64,000 nucleotides of DNA, from IMG/VR virus record IMGVR_UViG_3300027509_000012. One strand, written 5' to 3'. The notes below the pieces were generated by a model. The model was given only the letters and a program-made list of their open reading frames with translations. It ran no database searches and was not told where the DNA came from. This DNA is from a virus. Positions within the stretch are counted from its first letter, which is position 1, and each line of letters starts with the position of its first letter. Shown here in pieces: positions 2,724-64,000 of this stretch. Position numbers and translations under genes: made by a program.

Positions 2724-3269
2724 ATGTCAGAGTCAAAATCAAATACAAATACACATGCAGATGCTGCAAATAACGCAGGATTTGGTAAAAACATATGGAA
2801 GTCAATAATAGCTGCTTTCTTTATCATGTGGATAGCAATAGCTGTTGTAAAAAAATTGCCTATTATTGTTTGGCAAAAGGCCGAAGTTGTTGAATTAACT
2901 GATACATCAGTTTCTCTTGCTGTGTCTGGAATTAAAATTCGAGATTGTGCTTATGTTCCAAGTAGTCCAATTGGATTCGTAAGAACTGAGTTTGGTATAC
3001 GAAAAATTACAGACTTTGGATATCCAGATATATCAGTTAATCGTTCAAGAGAAAGATCACCATTCAGAACAGACTTTGGTGTATGGCGTTGGGATTGGAG
3101 TGAAATACCAGAAATGAAAGATGAAACTGCATATGAAGTATTATTATTGTCGCAAAATGTATGTGGTACGGATGCCATCGTTGCCGAAGACAATGAACGT
3201 GGTGGTCATTCAATCACTGGTGATTTACGATTCTCTGTTATTGGTCCATTTAAAGTAAATCAGGAATAA
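2724..3269 (+). CDS. single-pass membrane protein, tandem paralogue 2 of 3
   Basis: Same motifs as 2187..2720. Confidence 0.7.
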   Translation: MSESKSNTNTHADAANNAGFGKNIWKSIIAAFFIMWIAIAVVKKLPIIVWQKAEVVELTDTSVSLAVSGIKIRDCAYVPSSPIGFVRTEFGIRKITDFGYPDISVNRSRERSPFRTDFGVWRWDWSEIPEMKDETAYEVLLLSQNVCGTDAIVAEDNERGGHSITGDLRFSVIGPFKVNQE

Positions 3270-11515: not shown

Positions 11516-13003
11516 TTTGGTGATTTGAGCGATAATAACAGCAGCCGATTCAGTATCGGTGGTTGGTTCATTTACTACTGGTTCATCTACAATATTAGAT
11601 TTTGAATATTCGACTTTATTAGAATCAATAAATCTCTTACTAGATGGAGTAGCAGTTACATAATAAGTACCTTCTTTATAAGAATCAGGTATTGTAAAAG
11701 TAGTTCCTTTAACAGATTTTTTATATTCATTTTTATCAAATTTAATGTCATACTTGTTTTCATCATGAGTTTGATTCCATGTTAAAACATTTCCATTAAT
11801 CTTCAATCCAAATTCAGAATCAGTATCTTCCATCACAAGTGGTTCAGCATCATTAGATGTAACTGGAGTAGCAGATGGAGTAGCAGCAACAGGCTTATCG
11901 CCAATAGCTTCAACACCTTCACCATTTCTCCAATTAGGAGCAATCCAATTACCGTCATGATCTTCATCTTGCCATACGCGAACATAATGAATAAGAGCTT
12001 CATCAGAATTAATTGTTTCTGCTGATTCGGTTCCTAAGTTATACGCATATAAACCCGGATCGTTCTGAATAAACGGAGGTTGGGCAGTAACACCACCACC
12101 AGAGTTTGCACCAGAATTACCTTCTCGTGTTAGATATAGAGCCATCGCGATTTCAACTTTACAAACTAGATCTTCGCAAATTAAAACACCGTCTACATAC
12201 CATCGAGTACCTTCAGTAGACCAATGAACAGCAATCGTATGATCGCCCTTAGTCATATCAATTCCAAATGGACCTAAATCAACTGGTGGAATTTTCTTTG
12301 CATTAGCACCAATGTTTTTACATAGTAAAAGATTTCTTGAACTTGGAGTATTTTCATATTCCCATACATCTAATTCAACACCATTACCATCGTCATCATC
12401 GTATGTACCACCTACAAGTGATTTATTCTCATCGCTTGGATTAACAGCAGGTAGTAACCAACCGGATATTCTAAACCCCTCAGTATGTACATTTTCAAAA
12501 TTAACTCCAAATTCTACGAAGCCATATCGAAAATAAAAGTTTGGTGAATGTTCAGAAGAAGGTCGAACGGCTCCATCTTCCCATGTCATCGCGTAAGTAT
12601 CAATCCACGATGTATAAATTTTCTTTCTAAAATCCGCAGTTTTCCCATTACGTGGATGTTCATATGGGTGATGTGAATCTTTGATCGTTGGATCATCTTC
12701 ATCAGATTTGTATCCACCCATAACCAAAGAACCATCGCGAATCTTTAGTGTTTTATCTAAGTGCTTGTCGTACCACATAGCATGACGTTTACCCAAAGGG
12801 TATGCGCCATCTTTTTTATTGCCATCAGTATCGAAACCAAAAGTATTGGTTACATGTTGAGACATTTGAGCACGATTGTCGTTATGATCAGGTAGGATTT
12901 TTTCAAATCGCCACTTGTCTTGGTTTAGTTCATTTTCATTAAATTCGCTATTCCAAATTAATTTGAAATTAGCTTTTGAATCTTTAAGATTTGGTTTAGC
13001 CAT
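11486..13003 (-). CDS. GH16 family glycoside hydrolase
   Basis: WNSEFNENELNQDKW N-terminal motif, FRYGFVEF, catalytic ELDVWE (ExDxxE), HTIAVHWS...RWYVDG, IHYVRVWQ. Confidence 0.8.
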   Translation of the reverse strand: MAKPNLKDSKANFKLIWNSEFNENELNQDKWRFEKILPDHNDNRAQMSQHVTNTFGFDTDGNKKDGAYPLGKRHAMWYDKHLDKTLKIRDGSLVMGGYKSDEDDPTIKDSHHPYEHPRNGKTADFRKKIYTSWIDTYAMTWEDGAVRPSSEHSPNFYFRYGFVEFGVNFENVHTEGFRISGWLLPAVNPSDENKSLVGGTYDDDDGNGVELDVWEYENTPSSRNLLLCKNIGANAKKIPPVDLGPFGIDMTKGDHTIAVHWSTEGTRWYVDGVLICEDLVCKVEIAMALYLTREGNSGANSGGGVTAQPPFIQNDPGLYAYNLGTESAETINSDEALIHYVRVWQDEDHDGNWIAPNWRNGEGVEAIGDKPVAATPSATPVTSNDAEPLVMEDTDSEFGLKINGNVLTWNQTHDENKYDIKFDKNEYKKSVKGTTFTIPDSYKEGTYYVTATPSSKRFIDSNKVEYSKSNIVDEPVVNEPTTDTESAAVIIAQITKLLAKLRKLS

Positions 13004-13115
13004 AATATTCTCCCTTGTACATTATTTATCTAAAAACAGGAGGTATTTCACAGATTAATTACTAGAAAAATAGTAGATATGATATAATATCGAATTATTT
13101 ACACAATAGAGTAGT

Positions 13116-14042
13116 ATGTTTTCAATGAAATCAATAACATTGACATTTTTGATGGCCCTGACATTATCTGGATGTAATTGGGTTGATTCTACAGGCGTAC
13201 AGGCTGGAGCCGTAGACGATTCAACTATTGACCAAACATCAATACCCACGTTTCCAGTAGCTCCAATTGGTGAGCAACGAGAGCTTATTCCTCGTGCTCG
13301 TTTTAATAATTGGATTGATGCTATGGCTGGCCCTGATTTACGTACTGGAATTTATAAAGGAACAACACGAACATTTAATTCTCGTGTAAATGAAGTATTG
13401 GGAATAGAAGCAAGTTTGAAAGTGGAATGTGCAATAAACGAACAATCCCCGAAAATTAATATTATTACTTACTATGATACTCCAGATGATTTGTTGCTCA
13501 TGTATGCAACAGAAAGTATGATAGCTAATAGTGAAGCTGACTTCACTACTTTTAGTGTAGAAGAATCAGGGGGAATATATTCTAATACAATCAGAGAATC
13601 TGATACATTATATATGCTCCCGCAAATGCTCACTAATCGTATTTTTAGAATTTTATTGATGGAAGATGGTGTGTCAATTCAATATGTATTCGATCTAGAT
13701 GGATTTTATGATTCATTTAAATACGCATGTGAATGGCACAACGCAACAAATAATTATGTTAACTTAGATGAGTCAATGATCGAAGAACCAGTTATAGAAG
13801 AACCTGTAGTTGAAGAACCTGTAGTTGAAGAACCTGTAGTTGAAGAACCTGTAGTTGAAGAACCTGTAGTTGAAGAACAAGAACCAGAACCAGTTTTTGT
13901 AGATAAAAATTGTGGTGATTTTGAAACACAATCAGAAGCACAGGAATTCTTTATAGCCGCTAAAGAGGAAACTGGCGAACGCGATGCCCATTTCTTAGAC
14001 AGTAATGGTGATGAAACGGTTTGTGAATATTTACCTGAATAG
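13116..14042 (+). CDS. lipoprotein with EEPVV linker and C-terminal Excalibur-like Ca-binding domain
   Basis: Lipobox LSGC; C-terminal NCGDFETQSEAQ...LDSNGDETVCE. Confidence 0.7.
   Translation: MFSMKSITLTFLMALTLSGCNWVDSTGVQAGAVDDSTIDQTSIPTFPVAPIGEQRELIPRARFNNWIDAMAGPDLRTGIYKGTTRTFNSRVNEVLGIEASLKVECAINEQSPKINIITYYDTPDDLLLMYATESMIANSEADFTTFSVEESGGIYSNTIRESDTLYMLPQMLTNRIFRILLMEDGVSIQYVFDLDGFYDSFKYACEWHNATNNYVNLDESMIEEPVIEEPVVEEPVVEEPVVEEPVVEEPVVEEQEPEPVFVDKNCGDFETQSEAQEFFIAAKEETGERDAHFLDSNGDETVCEYLPE
13782..13880 (+). repeat. 15-bp tandem repeat GAAGAACCTGTAGTT (EEPVV)
   Basis: 5 perfect copies at 13797-13871 plus degenerate flanking copies. Confidence 0.95.
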
Positions 14043-14048
14043 AATAAT

Positions 14049-14588
14049 ATGAATACTAACGATTTATTAGAAACTAATTTAATTTGTACAGTGCTTGAGG
14101 GTAGTCATGCATATGGAACAGTCATACCATCTTCAGATCTTGATATGCGCGGAATTTTTTGTGGAAATCCAATTAATGTTAGAACACCATTTTTTCCTGT
14201 TAGGGAAATAGAGGTTGTTGAAGATGAAGATACTAAGTATTTTGAACTTAATCACTTTATGCGCTTATTGCTGGATCAAAATCCAAATATTGTACAGATG
14301 TTATGGGTACGCAATCAGGACATTATAAAATCAACTGAAGCATATGAGCTATTAAGATCACGTAGGGACAATTTTTTATCATCCAAAATAGCTTTCACAA
14401 CAGCAGGATATGCAGATTCTCAATTAAAAAGAATTAAATCATCAAAAAAACATGTAAACTACACCGATCAATTACATTCATTATCAACCGTTTTAACAAA
14501 AGCTTTGAAAGTGGGTGATATTGATCATACATGGATAAAAAACAATTGTGGTGATCAAGTATTGGACTATATAAAAAATGAAAAATGA
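14049..14588 (+). CDS. Pol-beta-family nucleotidyltransferase (putative RNA repair), N-terminal piece
   Basis: GSHAYG...SDLDMRG catalytic motif, NPNIVQMLW, GYADSQLKRIK; stops early with a ~40 aa unrelated tail. Confidence 0.82.
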   Translation: MNTNDLLETNLICTVLEGSHAYGTVIPSSDLDMRGIFCGNPINVRTPFFPVREIEVVEDEDTKYFELNHFMRLLLDQNPNIVQMLWVRNQDIIKSTEAYELLRSRRDNFLSSKIAFTTAGYADSQLKRIKSSKKHVNYTDQLHSLSTVLTKALKVGDIDHTWIKNNCGDQVLDYIKNEK

Positions 14589-15600
14589 TGAGTTGTTATT
14601 TAGAATCAACAATGAATTAATTCGAAAAGATGGAAAATTAAATGCACCCCTTTTAAACTTAAACTCTAAATGTGGGGATTTAATTTCATCTATTATAAAA
14701 CATACGCATTATTTAAATAGTGATGCGACTATAAGCCAAAGAATATGGCATATCACAAAAAATGTTCACACTACACCAAAATGTTGGTGTGGGAAAAATT
14801 CGTTGTGGATAAATCCAAAATATTCAAAATATTGTTCTCAGGTTTGTGCAACTACTTCATTAGAAGCAAGACAGAGAACTAAAAAACAATTTACAGGGGT
14901 TAAATTGTCAAAAGAACGCATAGATAAAATTATAAAAAGAAATACTGGTTCTAAACGTTCTATCGAATGTAGGAAAAAACTTAGTGATGGTAAATTAGGC
15001 AAAAAAAATCCACAATACGGTAAAAAATCATGGAACGCTGGGCTGTATGGAACTGATAATCCAATGTTTGGAGTTAAAAGACCCGGCACCGGATTGAAGG
15101 GTAAAGACAATCCATCATATGGAAAATCACCTCCCCTCGGCACAGGCTTTGGAATAAATGGAAAATTCAACGAAATACATTTTAGAAGTAGTTTAGAATT
15201 GTTGTATCTCATGTATTGGTATTCAACAAATATTATAGTAATTTCCGCAGAATCGTCAGATTTTAGAGTTAAATATTCCGATGATAAAAATGATATTAGA
15301 GCATATACGCCAGATTTCTATATACCATCGTTGAATACAGTTTATGAAATAAAACCTGAAAAATTACAAAAAAATAAAATAGTTCAGTTAAAATTTAATG
15401 CATTAATTGAACATCATAGTAATTTAATATGTAAATTAATTGGATATTCTGAAATAAGTGATTTTATTTTTTCAATTGATTTAAATTCCACTATTAATAA
15501 TTATATTGATAGTGGAGTTCTTAAAATTAACAAAAAACAATTTGAGAGGTTGCAAAAAAATTATGGAGATATCATTAGAGAATCTGCTAAACAAGTATGA
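14578..15600 (+). mobile_element. free-standing homing endonuclease (Cys-rich N-domain, NUMOD3-like repeats, PD-(D/E)xK/TnsA-like nuclease)
   Basis: PKCWCG...YCSQVCA; HxxxxK-like / GKKNPQYGK / NPMFG repeats; FRSSLE...YTPDFY...YEIKP; overlaps both halves of the nucleotidyltransferase. Confidence 0.8.
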
Positions 15601-16273
15601 TGCTCCAGATAATCATATTAATGATTGTTTGAAATTATGTATTCCGAGGCAAGAGTGTTATATTCATTTAATTCAGTGGTTCGCGGATAATAAAGTTATG
15701 CCGAATACATTTGATATAATGACATACAGCAATAATCATAGATTTATAAGTTATGGAAATGATTTGTATGGAATGTACGACTGGAATAAATTTAAATTAT
15801 TTAATCCAGATGGTTCGATTAAAGATAATTTTGATGGCTCAAGAGAATCACTGGGACAACCAAAGGCGATTGTTAAATTAAATAGATCTAAATGGACAGA
15901 TGATAAAAATTTCTATGACAAATATTGGTTATGGAAAAAAAATAGAAATGAAAAACGAGCTAAGTTAGAAGCTGAATTTTTTTATGATACAAAAAATGCT
16001 ATGCATCTCGTCAGACTTCTCAGAATGGGCTACGAAACACTTACTACAGGACAAGTAAACGTGTTCAGAGATGATGCTTCAGAGCTGTTAGAGATTCGCA
16101 ATGGCTCTCTCACATACGACGAAATATTAGCATATGCAGATACTATGGACATTAAAATAAAAGAAGCGTATGATAATACCGAACTGTCCCGCAAACCTAA
16201 TGTTAAATTAGCGGCACAGACTATAATGGAAGTACAAGATTTAATTTGGAATTCAAATGACAATAACAAATAA
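15563..16273 (+). CDS. nucleotidyltransferase, C-terminal piece
   Basis: YWLWKKNRNEKRAKLE..FFYDTKNAMHLVRLL.MG...L is the typical C-half of this family; GAGAGG RBS then ATG 15563 inside the endonuclease 3' end. Confidence 0.8.
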   Translation: MEISLENLLNKYDAPDNHINDCLKLCIPRQECYIHLIQWFADNKVMPNTFDIMTYSNNHRFISYGNDLYGMYDWNKFKLFNPDGSIKDNFDGSRESLGQPKAIVKLNRSKWTDDKNFYDKYWLWKKNRNEKRAKLEAEFFYDTKNAMHLVRLLRMGYETLTTGQVNVFRDDASELLEIRNGSLTYDEILAYADTMDIKIKEAYDNTELSRKPNVKLAAQTIMEVQDLIWNSNDNNK

Positions 16274-16766
16274 AATTAATCATAAAATTGACATTCGTGA
16301 AAAACAGTATGATGATTACACACAAGAAATCTTTGAATTGATTTCGCCTATAATAATAGGCGTCAATGAATTTTTATTTCATACTTCTATATTAAGTGAT
16401 GGTGACGAACTAATATTAAATACTATTGATCCTGTCGAAGATGTGTATATCATCACAGGATTTATAACTGCACCAGTCGGTACTGACATTCAATTGCAAG
16501 ATGGTTCAATAGTAGAAATCAATGATATACAAGATCAATTTGAATATAGAAAGAAATTTCGAATTCAAGTACCATCTGATTTAATAGATGCTAATGATAG
16601 TGATGAAGTGTTTGAATATTTGGTAAATCATGCAGAGCCAAAAGCTAGAAAAAGAAAACATCTTAATTCGCTTAGAAAAGATGTTGCCGCTTCTATATCT
16701 AATGATATGGATGAAGAAGATATGAATGACATATTAGAAAATATGGATACAGGGGTAGCTCATTAA
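16257..16766 (+). CDS. hypothetical protein
   Basis: ORF in operon, phage-like codon use. Confidence 0.6.
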   Translation: MTITNKINHKIDIREKQYDDYTQEIFELISPIIIGVNEFLFHTSILSDGDELILNTIDPVEDVYIITGFITAPVGTDIQLQDGSIVEINDIQDQFEYRKKFRIQVPSDLIDANDSDEVFEYLVNHAEPKARKRKHLNSLRKDVAASISNDMDEEDMNDILENMDTGVAH

Positions 16767-17225
16767 ATGGCAGGAGATATTAATTTAGGACGGAAGTTTG
16801 AAAAGCTCCCAGATGTATTGGAATACTATGAAAACGAGTATGCTAATTTTGAATCTGATTTAAAAATGAAAGGTAAGACTATCGAGCGCATCAGCACCGA
16901 TATTCCAGCCTACTATGCTTTTTATTCTGAACGTCACAATGAATTAAAGAAAATCCTATCCTATATGGAAGCCAGAGTCGCCCAAGTTAGAGGAAAATTA
17001 TATAGTGGAATTAAGAAAAGCTCACAGGTTGCCCTCGGAGAAAGAGAGATAAATAAATACATCGATGCAGATGATATTTACCTAGAAGTGCATGGATATA
17101 TGCTAGAAGTAAGAGAGGTACACGACATGTATGCATCAGCAGTCGAAAGCTGGAGAGTCGCAGGATTTTCCATGAACAATATTGTTAAAGCGAGGGTAGC
17201 GGATGTTTCTGACATTACATTATAA
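16767..17225 (+). CDS. uvsY: UvsY-like recombination mediator
   Basis: All-helical ~150 aa, EREINKYIDADD; directly upstream of UvsW. Confidence 0.7.
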   Translation: MAGDINLGRKFEKLPDVLEYYENEYANFESDLKMKGKTIERISTDIPAYYAFYSERHNELKKILSYMEARVAQVRGKLYSGIKKSSQVALGEREINKYIDADDIYLEVHGYMLEVREVHDMYASAVESWRVAGFSMNNIVKARVADVSDITL

Positions 17226-18748
17226 TGGATAAAAAATGCACTCTCGTAATCAAAGATGAAGTTAATTGTTCTGTACGTGGATTGCAAAACCAACACAAAG
17301 ATAAATTAAAAGCTCAATACGCAATATTCTCACCCACCAGATTTTATAATATAAAATTTAAGCTCGGCCAATGGGACGGTAAAATCATGTTCTTTAAGGA
17401 CAATGGTGACACCTATCTGCACTTATTAGATGAAATTGTTCCCTATCTTGATGATGTTGGGTATGACATAGAACTTGTCGATAACAGACGTTCAAAAATT
17501 TGCGAACCGGATCCCATTGATAATCAGTACTTAAATTATATGACTGGGCCTGATGGCAATCCTCTGATACTCAGGGATCACCAAGTGGACGTTATTAATA
17601 CGTTAATTAAACATGGTAATGGCATCGGAAAAGCCAGCACCGGATCTGGTAAAACTTACGTAACCGGATGCTTAACTAAAATATACGAAGAAGCATGTGG
17701 ATTTAATGTTATCACAATAGTACCTAATAAAACATTGGTAAGGCAAACACACAAGGATTATGTGTTAATGGGAATAGATGCTGGAGTTTATTACGGAGAT
17801 AAAAAGGAATTGAATCATATTCATTTAGTATCAACGTGGCAATCATTAAAAAACAAACCAGAATTAATGGATCGTTTTCATGCGGTGATAGTAGACGAAG
17901 CGCATATGGTAAAAGGACCAATACTCCAAACACTTTTATTAAAACATGGAAGAAATCTTCCAGTTCGGTTTGGTGTGACTGGAACAATGCCAAAAGAAGA
18001 AATAGATGAAATGACTGTACATATGGCATTAGGCCCAGAACGCATAGATATTCCAGCACACACTTTGATAGAAAAAGGATTATTGTCTAATCTTGATATT
18101 GAAATTTATGAGTTAGAACATGATCTAGCCATTCATTACGATGCGTATCTCGAAAGTTTTAGACCATCACTTGTAGAAAAGAAGCCAGTAACCTATAAAC
18201 AATTTAGAGATACATTTCTACCAGACTATCAATCTGAAAAGAAATTTAATAATAATTCAAAAGAACACATGGCATGGATAGCTCAAAAACTAGTTCATTA
18301 CAGAGATAATTATGGAAATGTATTATGTTTAGTAGATGGTGTTAAATACGGAAAAGATCTAGCCAATATGATTGAAGGTGGAGTATTTCTTTCTGGTAGT
18401 GATAAAGTAAAAGATCGAGAGAAGATATATGCAGAATACGCAGACAGAGATGATATTATATTAATAGCAACATCTCAAATAGCAAGCACAGGCTTAAATA
18501 TCAAACGTATATTCACACTAGCATATATTAATTTTGGAAAGTCTGGAATTAAAACAGTGCAAAGTATTGGCCGTGGGCTTCGAATGGATGTGGATAAGAA
18601 CAAAGTAAAAGTATTGGACATTTATGCTGATTTAAAATATTCTAGGAGACATAGTAGAGAGCGCATTAATTTTTATAAAGAGGCGAAGTATCCATACAAA
18701 AAACAAATCGTAAAATTCAAAGGGTTGGATTCAGATATATTTGATTAA
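17225..18748 (+). CDS. uvsW: UvsW-like SF2 DNA helicase
   Basis: LRDHQ, STGSGKT, IVDEAH, FGVTGT, STGLNI, QSIGRGLR. Confidence 0.92.
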   Translation: MDKKCTLVIKDEVNCSVRGLQNQHKDKLKAQYAIFSPTRFYNIKFKLGQWDGKIMFFKDNGDTYLHLLDEIVPYLDDVGYDIELVDNRRSKICEPDPIDNQYLNYMTGPDGNPLILRDHQVDVINTLIKHGNGIGKASTGSGKTYVTGCLTKIYEEACGFNVITIVPNKTLVRQTHKDYVLMGIDAGVYYGDKKELNHIHLVSTWQSLKNKPELMDRFHAVIVDEAHMVKGPILQTLLLKHGRNLPVRFGVTGTMPKEEIDEMTVHMALGPERIDIPAHTLIEKGLLSNLDIEIYELEHDLAIHYDAYLESFRPSLVEKKPVTYKQFRDTFLPDYQSEKKFNNNSKEHMAWIAQKLVHYRDNYGNVLCLVDGVKYGKDLANMIEGGVFLSGSDKVKDREKIYAEYADRDDIILIATSQIASTGLNIKRIFTLAYINFGKSGIKTVQSIGRGLRMDVDKNKVKVLDIYADLKYSRRHSRERINFYKEAKYPYKKQIVKFKGLDSDIFD

Positions 18749-62268: not shown

Positions 62269-62622
62269 ATGAACGATTATCAACAAACACTATATTCTGA
62301 CTTGATGGCGCTGGTCGCTGGATCAAAGAAGAAAATGTTTTTCTTTAAAGATCACGAACGAGATGGAAACCATTATCGAGTTTTCAGCTATCACATGGGA
62401 TCATATTCTGATTGGTTACTTCCATCTGCATTAGAATGCCGTGGCATCATGTTTCAAATGAATGGTGAAGAACCTATTGCATTAGCATCATTACCATTTC
62501 CTAAATTTTTTAACGTTTACGAGGCGTCCGACGATATAAATACTCTAGCAGAAGCATTAGTTAGAGATGGGAGATTATCAGAAGATGTATTCAACAGATT
62601 TAAAAAGAGAAATAAAAAATAA
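62269..62622 (+). CDS. Rnl1-type RNA ligase, N-terminal piece
   Basis: YRVFSYH..SYSDW..P.ALECRGIMF...LPFPKFFN as in T4 RnlA N-terminus; stops before the KxDG motif. Confidence 0.85.
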   Translation: MNDYQQTLYSDLMALVAGSKKKMFFFKDHERDGNHYRVFSYHMGSYSDWLLPSALECRGIMFQMNGEEPIALASLPFPKFFNVYEASDDINTLAEALVRDGRLSEDVFNRFKKRNKK

Positions 62623-63439
62623 ACTATTTTTTAAAAGCGGAATAATAAACAAATATATCTATACAGAAAAATTTTGGATTAAAAATAATTTAGTAGAGTT
62701 GCGAACTAATATATATGAAAAAACATCATTTATTCCATATGATGCTAGATTGGATGAACGATTATTTGTCATAATTAATGATGTTGATATATTACCTTTA
62801 TGTCCAGTTTGTGAAAAAATGGTTAAATTTAAAAGATATGGTCTGGGATATTCAACTTATTGTTCAGTAAAATGTAGAGCAAACCATAGTGAATGGCAAA
62901 TGGTAGTTAGGGATACAAATAAAAAACGATATGGTGTCGAATTTATTGCTCAATTACCACATGAACGAATTAAGCGAGGTATTGAGTTTAGATATAATGT
63001 GAAACACACTTTTGATTATTCTAATGCCCAGAAAAAAAGAAGAAAAACTTTAGTTAGAATATATGGAGAAGATTATAATTCTGGTTGGACAGAAGAAGCA
63101 ATTAAAAAAAGAATTAATAATGGTAATATGGTTCCTTATGAACTTCGAGATGAATATTTAGAATATAAAAGACAAGTTGAATTGATTACTAGAAAACAGC
63201 CAATTAATACTTTAGAAAATCATGAATTGCGGGGAGTTATTGGCAAAGATGAAAATCCATATCATTTAGATCACGTAATTTCTATGTACGAAGGTTTTAT
63301 GGAAGATGTACCACCCGAAATAATAGGTAATATTATAAATTTACGATTTATCCCAGCAGGAAAAAATATAACAAAGGGAAATAAATCAAATGGATCATTA
63401 CAGGACTTAATAGAACGCTATGAAAAAAGAATTCGATGA
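62585..63439 (+). mobile_element. free-standing HNH homing endonuclease with Cys-rich N-domain
   Basis: LPLCPVC...YSTYCSVKC; YHLDHVIS..GF...PPEIIGNI.NL..IP...N..K; GGAG then ATG 62585 (62567 also possible). Confidence 0.8.
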
Positions 63440-64000
63440 CTTAGTTGAAGCAAATGGATTAGAATCATTGTATGATTATTTTCCACATCTTAAACCATTA
63501 AATTGGAGTAAGTTTAAATGGGCAGAAAATAAAGCAGACGGAAGTATGATAGCCACATACTCTGATAATGGTCCTATGCGATTAAAATCAAAAACAGCAT
63601 TAGAATCAATTATGGCTAAAGATGCAGAATCATATCTACAATTGCCAGAAAATGCTGATTTGGAAAGAGCAATGCGACATTATCATAATGCTGGATACAC
63701 AATTGTTGGTGAGTGGTGCGATTCAACTAAGCCAGAATCTAGAATTGTATTGGCTTATGATAAACCACAATTAATAATTTTTGGTGTGCGAAGAAATAGT
63801 GATGGTCAAATCATTGATTATCGTCATGACGAAGGTTTGGTTGGTGATTGTTCTGATGAATACAAAAAACAGATGCGCGAAATACTGGTCTTGAATTCGG
63901 TTGAGCGAACACTAATTACCGATCCAGAAGAATTTAATAAATTAGCATTGAGTGAAACTGGTATCGAAGGATACGTTTACGTATTCGAAGATGATGTTCG
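63420..64000 (+). CDS. Rnl1-type RNA ligase, C-terminal piece, 3'-truncated by window edge (not in ORF track)
   Basis: Own translation: MKKEFDDLVEANGL...NKADGSMIATY...RLKSKT...TIVGEW...RIVL.YDKPQL...R...ETGIEGYV (motif I KxDGS, motif IV EGYV); open to window end. Confidence 0.85.
   Translation, partial: MKKEFDDLVEANGLESLYDYFPHLKPLNWSKFKWAENKADGSMIATYSDNGPMRLKSKTALESIMAKDAESYLQLPENADLERAMRHYHNAGYTIVGEWCDSTKPESRIVLAYDKPQLIIFGVRRNSDGQIIDYRHDEGLVGDCSDEYKKQMREILVLNSVERTLITDPEEFNKLALSETGIEGYVYVFEDDV

Follow-up and report, generated by a model that had tools for sequence, protein, structure and literature searches.

Organization of the split RlaP locus

The 64,000-nucleotide stretch of viral DNA analysed here (IMG/VR record IMGVR_UViG_3300027509_000012, hereafter the window) contains a gene of the RlaP nucleotidyltransferase (NTase) family in two pieces, with a homing endonuclease gene (HEG) lying between them. 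Open reading frame (ORF) calling gave three ORFs on the plus strand, each in a different frame: the N-half (14049..14588, 179 aa), the free-standing endonuclease (14578..15600, 340 aa) and the C-half (15563..16273, 236 aa). The N-half overlaps the endonuclease by 11 nt (14578-14588) and the endonuclease overlaps the C-half by 38 nt (15563-15600). We consider it probable that a free-standing HEG has split the RlaP gene in the loop of an insert native to the protein, that the HEG and the coding sequence on either side of it form one cassette, and that the two polypeptides reassemble non-covalently.

The N-half consists of the RlaP Pol-beta-type NTase domain followed by a C-terminal tail (aa 131-179, 14439..14585), which is absent from the short intact forms of the protein. 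It matches Pfam RlaP PF10127 with 49.3 bits (cut-off 23, E 7e-13), and the nucleotidyltransferase family phrog_388 is matched by both the N-half (4.9e-35) and the C-half (5.4e-26). The Pol-beta NTase motif (G-S, D-x-D and a third Asp) is kept in the N-half as G18, S19, D30, D32 and D61, all of which are invariant columns; three strictly conserved aspartates were described for RlaP (PMC12776372). The C-half comprises a head (aa 1-30, 15563..15652) and the RlaP helical domain, and is 59% identical to the intact protein P0002. RlaP adds 1-2 nucleotides to damaged RNA 3′ ends and acts together with RNA ligases (PMC12776372, PMC7824862). By these matches the gene is that of an RlaP-family RNA 3′-end nucleotidyltransferase, split in two, and its enzyme activity has presumably been retained.

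The overlap at 15563..15600 is dual-coding: the endonuclease ends there in NYGDIIR... and the C-half starts with MEISLENL.... The ATG at 15563 is the start kept in nine related loci, and a longer C-half could begin at TTG 15506. The sequence GAGAGG (15543-15548) is found 14 nt upstream of the ATG, a spacing that is long for a Shine-Dalgarno element.

Splicing and expression signals

A search of 13800-16500 against Rfam, including group I and group II introns, with permissive filters gave no intron match at E <= 10 and only chance snoRNA-like ones. The 11- and 38-nt overlaps leave no non-coding room for a ribozyme core. A group I or II intron was therefore rejected, there being neither a covariance-model match nor non-coding sequence at the overlaps. 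An intein, contiguous or split, was rejected as well: no Hint/intein domain was found by Pfam in any of the three proteins, the endonuclease is out of frame with both halves, and the tails carry no Hint blocks. The two halves thus appear to be translated separately, with nothing spliced.

These results agree with most of what an earlier note on this DNA, made from the sequence alone, had put forward about the locus. The three-ORF anatomy with its coordinates and overlaps, the nucleotidyltransferase identity, the arrangement of a gene in pieces around a free-standing HEG with no intron, and the lack of intein signatures all hold. The start of its own that was claimed for the C-half finds support in the conserved ATG; the GAGAGG cited with it as a ribosome-binding site is a weak case.

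Counts of sigma-70 promoters and terminators over 13000-17300 were not above those in shuffled sequences, and no exact T4 late-promoter sequence TATAAATA occurs in 13001-17500. Among related split loci on other contigs, L009 has an exact TATAAATA, the T4 late-promoter consensus, at 2960-3010 between the N-half stop and the HEG start, and near-copies are found at the same spot in L010, L011 and L013, within a spacer of 36-43 nt between N-half and HEG. The window is without this spacer, which has been lost, the N-half overlapping the endonuclease start by 11 nt.

Origin of the tail and the head

The nearest intact relatives (P0002 of 347 aa, P0003, P0004 and P0005) read KRIK/R-GHNKWIN-NPQP-x5-P.Q across the junction, with a short Pro-rich linker and no insert. 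Against these forms, the window carries ~42 aa extra on the N-half and ~26-30 aa extra on the C-half. Within the N-tail, aa 131-137 (7 aa) stand in place of the GHNKWIN motif of the intact forms, and residues 138-179 are the counterpart of the first half of an insert of ~65 aa, which in long forms of RlaP sits between KRIK and P.Q. The tails are absent from P0002, P0003, P0004 and P0005 and from about 100 other short forms, and occur in a minority of long forms.

When the halves are joined (415 aa), they align colinearly from end to end with the intact proteins of CBB (CBB_159, 416 aa), GAP32 (GAP32_154, 413 aa), ph0011 (410 aa), XbC2 (XbC2_151) and A4 (A4_502) and with P0069 (412 aa) and P0088 (410 aa), all of which carry the insert uninterrupted. 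In tblastn of the N-half against phage CBB the alignment reaches residue 179. The core identity to the query is 68-74% for P0002 and only 40-47% for the long forms.

Profile comparisons complement these alignments. They included a second kind of split allele (see below), in which a GIY-YIG endonuclease occupies the same place; the tails and heads of the window kind are referred to as type A and those of the GIY-YIG kind as type B. In hhalign the type-A N-tail matched the long-form insert with P = 3.4e-5, the type-B N-tail matched it with P = 2.9e-6, the two tail types matched each other with P = 3.1e-5, and the type-B C-head matched the end of the insert with P = 2.1e-5. The match between the type-A and type-B heads was not significant. 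The hhalign alignments are all at the colinear position, including the non-significant one of the type-A head with the insert, which is taken up below.

The AlphaFold model of P0069 (predicted local distance difference test score, pLDDT, 84.9) provides the structural context. The core helix runs into the insert (helix 113-151) and is followed by two short helices (157-163 and 166-175), the loop 176-188 and a last short helix (189-193). The loop 176-188 is the sole low-pLDDT loop of the insert, with values below 50 at 183-185, and both kinds of split, that with a PD-(D/E)xK and that with a GIY-YIG endonuclease, land in its equivalent. The insert position corresponds to the linker between the two RlaP domains in the crystal structure of PfRlaP (PMC12776372). 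Tail and head would thus be a native insert that was divided in two at a flexible loop.

The start of the C-half deserves separate consideration, as its ATG and first 10-12 codons lie inside the endonuclease ORF. The DNA of the overlap is strongly conserved in all eight type-A loci (consensus AAAAATT-ATG-GNGACATCATTAGAGCAACT). Where split forms start with M-x-T-S-L-E-Q-L, the intact P0069 carries S-V-Q-E-Q-V-L. Distant relatives of the HEG (P0135-P0141, some with PF05367) end at ...RL.KN-L/I, just before the overlap. We infer that the endonuclease ORF runs on into host sequence and that the head is not derived from the endonuclease. Because the insert is continuous in intact long forms, and its halves also flank an unrelated HEG and persist after HEG deletion, the two extensions look to have been captured from the host gene and not invented by the element.

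Distribution of split alleles

A search with the C-half retrieved about a dozen proteins consisting of a C-half only, many of which start with M-[VLE]-[TI]-S-L-E-Q-L. The order N-half, endonuclease, C-half was found in L009, L010, L011, L013, L016, L018 and L019, between uvsX and uvsY-uvsW, and a 2-kb contig (L017) has the HEG and the C-half with no called RlaP N-half. Besides the window, 8/8 loci of HEG homologues for which DNA was examined lie at the RlaP split site. In the window the neighbours of the locus are uvsY and uvsW, which make the phage a T4-like jumbo phage, a marine one; a protein of the window is also found on a 302-kb contig, and the one sequencing run listed with this DNA, a DNA run and not an RNA run, is a marine metagenome that may be its source.

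The second kind of split is seen in L012 (2421-4209) and in the contig of P0064, where an unrelated GIY-YIG endonuclease sits in the same insert loop with its own tail and head. In these other T4-like phages the endonuclease is of the LEM-3_GIY-YIG plus NUMOD3 kind and 189-219 aa long. Its tail reads GHNKWI.Q.DRG..KL...WLE.HF and its head is acidic.

A third state is represented by L014 and L015, which are split with both halves intact and separated by a gap of 84 nt only. Read in the endonuclease frame, the gap gives ...KNYGDIIKATS*, the conserved C-terminus of the HEG. From this remnant it follows that the HEG was deleted and that the gene stayed in two pieces.

At least 10 lineages (40-60% identity) have kept intact ORFs for the two halves, and none of the split alleles found lacks either tail. 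Comparison of L011 with L013 gave nonsynonymous divergences per site (pN) of 0.089 for the N-core, 0.073 for the N-tail, 0.146 for the endonuclease, 0.22 for the C-head and 0.084 for the C-core, with synonymous divergences (pS) of 0.6-0.9, where synonymous sites are near saturation. Every part is under purifying selection and none is decaying. The HEGs are 41-53% identical between lineages and 77% identical within L011/L013, the divergence between lineages being about equal to that of the cores.

Two further RlaP proteins, P0148 (269 aa) and P0154 (288 aa), end early after YW.WK and share an unrelated tail, PKD-K/N-KA-K/R-LFY..E.E. This tail may mark a second split site in the RlaP family. All matches in an IMG/VR search around these two proteins were intact short forms.

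Exchange of the cassette between alleles

In a tree of 120 proteins from which the insert columns had been left out, the query has the short intact P0002 as its sister (Shimodaira-Hasegawa-like approximate likelihood-ratio test, SH-aLRT, 97), L010 has the short P0082 (SH-aLRT 100), and L011 and L013 fall together with the GIY-YIG-split L012 and the short P0107 (SH-aLRT 99). A second tree was confined to the N-core plus the final third of the C-half; on it eight changes are required to account for the eight split alleles, a number not below that obtained with shuffled labels. A single clade of split alleles was rejected (log-likelihood difference 353.6, p of the approximately unbiased (AU) test 3.6e-8).

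The closest view of an exchange is given by the split L010 and the short intact L020, the locus of P0082. On the left the two are 97.7% identical over 830 nt, up to ...QLK; on the right, from about KHAMHLVRLL, there are 3 mismatches in 608 nt. The tract between them measures 393 nt in the intact L020 and about 1625 nt in the split L010, in which it is made up of tail, endonuclease, head and about 100 diverged codons of the C-core (33% amino acid identity). This pair shows what characterizes a homing gene, namely presence and absence at the same site in near-identical flanks, with a co-converted flank. In the query, the C-core beside the head is P0002-like (57%, as against 31-42% to other split alleles), and thus the unit common to all events is tail, endonuclease and head.

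The inheritance of the three parts together is also suggested by their divergence. Over seven loci the identity of the HEG tracks that of tail plus head (Mantel r = 0.69, p = 0.027) and does not track that of the core (r = 0.36, p = 0.16). The tail, the HEG and the head thus appear to be inherited and exchanged as one cassette. The pattern is that predicted for homing with co-conversion, or for the reverse by recombination.

Two further claims of the earlier note are modified by these findings. The segments that it recorded as additional to intact members are indeed absent from the nearest ones (P0002, P0003 and P0005); it had named their presence in uninterrupted homologues as evidence against its idea, and the N-tail does occur in the uninterrupted long forms. 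It further proposed that the element carries its own tags. Tail, HEG and head do move as a unit; the tags are, however, halves of a host insert, which also flank the GIY-YIG HEG (L012) and persist without a HEG (L014). Given co-conversion with the HEG, the proposal is partly vindicated in that a short recipient gets its tails together with the endonuclease.

The endonuclease

Three regions follow one another in the endonuclease: a Cys-rich N-domain (about aa 1-105), NUMOD3 repeats (about 107-190) and a TnsA-like PD-(D/E)xK nuclease (about 195-340). NUMOD3 was matched at residues 125-150 with 27.9 bits (cut-off 20.4), and Pfam TnsA_N remained below threshold (15.8 vs 26.5 bits, E = 0.021). In the model of the protein (pLDDT 85.7) the Cys-rich N-domain is helical, the NUMOD3 repeats have little order and the C-terminal domain is of the alpha/beta type. 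Foldseek with the whole model found no match in the PDB at E <= 0.001. In a second structural comparison TnsA (1f1z_A) came top with Z 8.1 and a root-mean-square deviation of 4.1 over 139 aligned residues; it ranks above other PD-(D/E)xK nucleases, among them I-Bth0305I (PDB 3r3p, Z 4.9). The predicted catalytic residues (15196..15354), E207 in FRSSLE, D246 in PDF and E257-x-K259 in EIKP, are invariant in an alignment of 23 sequences that includes the distant PF05367-bearing relatives. The C-terminal domain is, on the model, of the restriction-endonuclease-like PD-(D/E)xK fold, and it would cleave a target of its own.

Thirteen full-length homologues of the endonuclease share 43-50% identity with it, and its lengths in related loci are 334-344 aa. 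The region is rich in AT, the GC content being 28.7% for the endonuclease and 34.6% for the whole window. Over its N-terminal ~100 aa the endonuclease is related to an HNH ORF at 62567-63439 (BLASTP E = 4e-6 in a single comparison), and no significant paralogue was found in the window by tblastn. In the phage collection, the endonuclease gave one weak tblastn match (Vibrio phage pv27, 29%), and searches for relatives at the DNA level returned spurious short matches only. A sequence search of the PDB yielded no match for RlaP (P0002 as query) and chance matches only for the endonuclease. In scans of IMG/VR, the endonuclease found no relatives, P0137 found nothing, and the N-half found only one intact short form (L008).

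Predicted reassembly of the halves

For the co-fold of N-half and C-half, alignments of 35 and 33 rows were supplied. MAFFT had misplaced the tails in an alignment with type-B N-halves, which was not used for folding. The prediction reached an interaction score from aligned errors (ipSAE) of 0.83, against 0.00 for the best of three controls; in a benchmark the mark was reached by 58/80 solved complexes and 2/110 mismatched pairs, counts that are only a rough guide here, as the co-fold used its own alignments. At least 93% of the contacts recur between runs, and the partners have pLDDT of at least 83.

Most of the low-error contacts are core to core. Residues N 67-71 and 98-105 pack against the C-terminal helix 217-228 at about 0.6 Å expected error, within a broader contact of N 67-112 with C 208-228. 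The same docking of the C-terminal helix on two helices of the NTase domain is seen in the crystal structure of PfRlaP (PMC12776372). The interface also holds 24 residues of the tail (138-174) and 17 of the head (2-29), with the tail-head pairs 145:22, 141:22, 167:26 and 148:9 below 0.8 Å expected error. The earlier proposal that helical tags rejoin the halves therefore stands insofar as tail and head touch in the co-fold; it does not insofar as the predicted interface is for the most part that between the native RlaP domains and not the tags. Since a single fold was cut in two and a structure of the family has been solved, the result speaks for compatibility of the modelled halves and not for binding.

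Proposed mechanism and alternatives

According to the reading that we favour, the HEG would sit in a flexible loop in the middle of a helical insert of ~65 residues in the RlaP gene, and the C-half would start inside the 3′ end of the endonuclease ORF with no splicing. N-tail, HEG and C-head would pass between RlaP alleles, including alleles without the insert. A likely route would be double-strand-break repair or recombination that is resolved in conserved flanking motifs, GYA..QLKR on the left and P.Q or KHAMHLVRLL on the right. Once translated, N-half and C-half would rejoin non-covalently through the native inter-domain interface of RlaP, with tail and head packing together.

Several points weigh against this reading and have to be set beside the evidence for it. 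The GAGAGG sequence is weak evidence for a ribosome-binding site of the C-half, as it also lies inside conserved endonuclease codons (R-L). The hhalign match of the type-A C-head with the long-form insert is not significant (P = 0.18) and its first ~12 codons are within the HEG ORF, for which reasons part of this head could be derived from the element. The trees come from a quick search, and the group used in the AU test was set after the first tree had been seen, on the basis of the trait and not of the tree. L010/L020 is the sole recent exchange seen, and whether it was a gain or a loss is not readable from two sequences. Most transfers seem to be old, because the HEGs of different lineages are as diverged as their cores. 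Finally, cleavage, homing, assembly and NTase activity are all predictions, and we infer any requirement for the tails.

The proposal can be carried further. The HEG may have captured the insert halves as portable complementation tags, so that short alleles are split and equipped at once, essential or useful genes are colonized free of cost, and two HEG families have converged on the same solution. We put this forward tentatively, and in its full extent it is more doubtful than not.

A competing view is that the tails have no role in association: the HEG would have settled at a domain boundary, in a surface loop that tolerates insertion, the native interface alone would hold the halves together, and the tails would simply have been co-converted. 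Such a view accommodates the predominance of core-to-core contacts in the co-fold, which match the helix docking of PfRlaP (PMC12776372), the fact that short forms work without any insert, and the dispensability of the Aeh1 tails for heterodimer formation (PMC3045599). It does not readily explain why the N-tail should be as constrained as the catalytic core (pN 0.073 vs 0.089), why tail and head contribute their 24 and 17 residues to the predicted interface with several pairs at such low expected error, or why every split allele found has both tails. We regard it as unlikely, though it deserves serious attention.

That the direction was reversed strikes us as improbable. Here the insert would have begun as HEG tails, and the long forms (Mimasvirus, Asteriusvirus and P0069/P0088) would be scars in which the HEG was deleted and the halves were fused in frame; a selfish element would then have donated a new protein segment. 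The long forms do fall into two small clades, set apart from each other among some 106 short forms, the central linker at the split point varies in length and sequence, and loss of the HEG does occur (L014). That sole loss, however, left the gene split and not fused, and the clade of Mimasvirus and Asteriusvirus is deep and on a long branch. HEG remnants never came up in long-form DNA, at which no search for them was aimed, and the origin of the tails themselves would be left unexplained.

It is very unlikely, in our estimate, that the tags were made or brought by the element without deriving from any RlaP gene, having evolved as association peptides. Intact RlaP genes of unrelated jumbo phages hold a continuous insert with which the N-tail shares homology, and a homologous tail and head flank the unrelated GIY-YIG HEG; the distant HEG relatives stop before the overlap, which looks like read-through into host sequence, and P0069 has S-V-Q-E-Q-V-L at the place of the split-form start M-x-T-S-L-E-Q-L. 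What speaks for such an origin is the absence of the tags from the nearest intact relatives, the position of the C-half start and its first ~12 codons in the HEG ORF, the lack of a significant match of the type-A head to the long-form insert, the co-variation of tails and heads with the HEG, and the Aeh1 precedent (PMC3045599). A dead pseudogene, or rejoining by an unrecognized intron, intein, frameshift or ribosomal bypassing, to which the poor ribosome-binding site of the C-half is the only hint, can be discounted with near certainty, given halves that are intact in at least 10 lineages at 40-60% identity and also after HEG loss, purifying selection on every part, no Rfam match at E <= 10, and three frames with conserved stop and start codons and no Hint domain.

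Comparison with known systems

The closest known case is the nrdA-a/mobE/nrdA-b arrangement of phage Aeh1 (Friedrich et al. 2007; PMC3045599), likewise an enzyme gene of a T4-like phage that is divided into two independently translated ORFs by a free-standing HEG, with the endonuclease ORF overlapping the downstream half and no RNA or protein splicing. In that system, as Crona et al. 2011 (PMC3045599) found, the split NrdA cannot do without the tails that came with the insertion of mobE; the authors proposed that these were inherited with the endonuclease and expected similar tails on further fragmented genes, T4 gp39/gp60 among them. The "third way" that the earlier note set beside intron and intein had thus already been published for Aeh1 NrdA and mobE. 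The differences are several. The gene there encodes a ribonucleotide reductase and here an RlaP NTase; MobE is an HNH endonuclease, whereas that of the window is of the PD-(D/E)xK type with NUMOD3. Aeh1 is a single case, while for RlaP there are short intact forms, long intact forms, splits by two HEG families and a split from which the HEG was deleted, and the RlaP tails can be traced back to an insert that was there before and is uninterrupted in other phages. The complementary charge of the Aeh1 tails (isoelectric points 10.4 and 3.8) recurs in the GIY-YIG-type alleles and is not consistent in the type-A alleles. The need for tails was demonstrated in Aeh1; for RlaP it may hold, with tail-head contacts in the co-fold and the low pN of the tail as indirect support.

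Bonocora et al. reportedly described, in 2011, the T4 gene 60-mobA-gene 39 region, a split topoisomerase subunit, as having a mobile cassette of MobA plus a 50-nt bypass insert. There, too, a HEG travels with adjacent non-endonuclease sequence in a split essential gene, and tail-like extensions are present on both halves (PMC3045599; 10.1101/2022.08.31.505936). The 50-nt bypass insert has no counterpart at the RlaP locus, where no translational bypass element is present and the co-travelling sequence codes for protein tails. The long-form RlaP genes (CBB_159, GAP32_154, XbC2_151, ph0011, A4_502 and P0069/P0088) differ in being one continuous ORF with no endonuclease.

PD-(D/E)xK homing endonucleases (I-Ssp6803I and I-Bth0305I) and TnsA share with the window enzyme a restriction-endonuclease-like fold with E..D..ExK. 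Unlike I-Ssp6803I and I-Bth0305I, the window HEG is free-standing and not intron-encoded, and its predicted nuclease is C-terminal to NUMOD3 and a Cys-rich N-domain. Fractured genes with split inteins (Dassa et al. 2009, PMC2677866) resemble the locus in their two gene pieces, the free-standing endonuclease gene between these and their occurrence in metagenomic phage-like DNA. The RlaP tails differ in being, as it appears, halves of a helical insert with no intein blocks, and trans-splicing is therefore not expected.

Other observations in the window and its relatives

A second gene in pieces, that of an Rnl1-type RNA ligase, is found at 62269-64000. Its N-piece occupies 62269-62622 (117 aa) and its C-piece runs from 63420 to the window end (Pfam RNA_lig_T4_1, 1.1e-10). 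The ORF between them (62567-63439, 290 aa) overlaps both pieces; it had been called HNH in the earlier note, and Pfam gives only DUF7487, below threshold. Both split genes of the window, RlaP and the Rnl1-type ligase, belong to RNA repair.

Just upstream of the RlaP locus, at 13116-14042, lies an ORF of 308 aa with a lipoprotein-like N-terminus (LSGC), six tandem (E)EPVV repeats and no Pfam match; the repeat DNA gave spurious blastn matches to LysM/transglycosylase genes of Enterococcus and Bacillus phages. On the contig of P0002, the closest relative with an intact RlaP, the uvsW helicase (L021 8008-10554, 848 aa) matches Hom_end_hint, Hom_end and LAGLIDADG_3, which indicates an intein. The uvsW of the window (17225-18748, 507 aa) has none of the three. 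Downstream of uvsW, L013 (6031-6694) and L021 (11432-11989) have an ORF of 181-185 aa with a DNA_pol3_alpha match, followed directly in L013 by a GIY-YIG/NUMOD3 ORF on the opposite strand; in L013 it may be another endonuclease-associated gene fragment.

Significance of the RlaP allele series

To our knowledge, Aeh1 NrdA is the only endonuclease-fragmented enzyme that has been shown to depend on insertion-borne tails. RlaP brings in another enzyme and a nuclease of a different class, tails whose origin can be traced, and a natural series of alleles. The locus also documents a little-described endonuclease architecture, in which a Cys-rich domain and NUMOD3 repeats are combined with a TnsA-like nuclease. 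Natural intermediates are available in the form of short intact, long intact, PD-(D/E)xK-split, GIY-YIG-split and HEG-deleted split alleles together with a near-isogenic cassette pair. As RlaP is a small, structurally characterized enzyme (about 350-415 aa), the need for the tails, the target of the HEG and the homing tract are directly testable. If the capture of the insert halves as portable tags is true and the tails are needed, RlaP would be the first case in which a series of natural alleles allowed the "molecular antidote" idea derived from Aeh1 to be tested by allele swaps.

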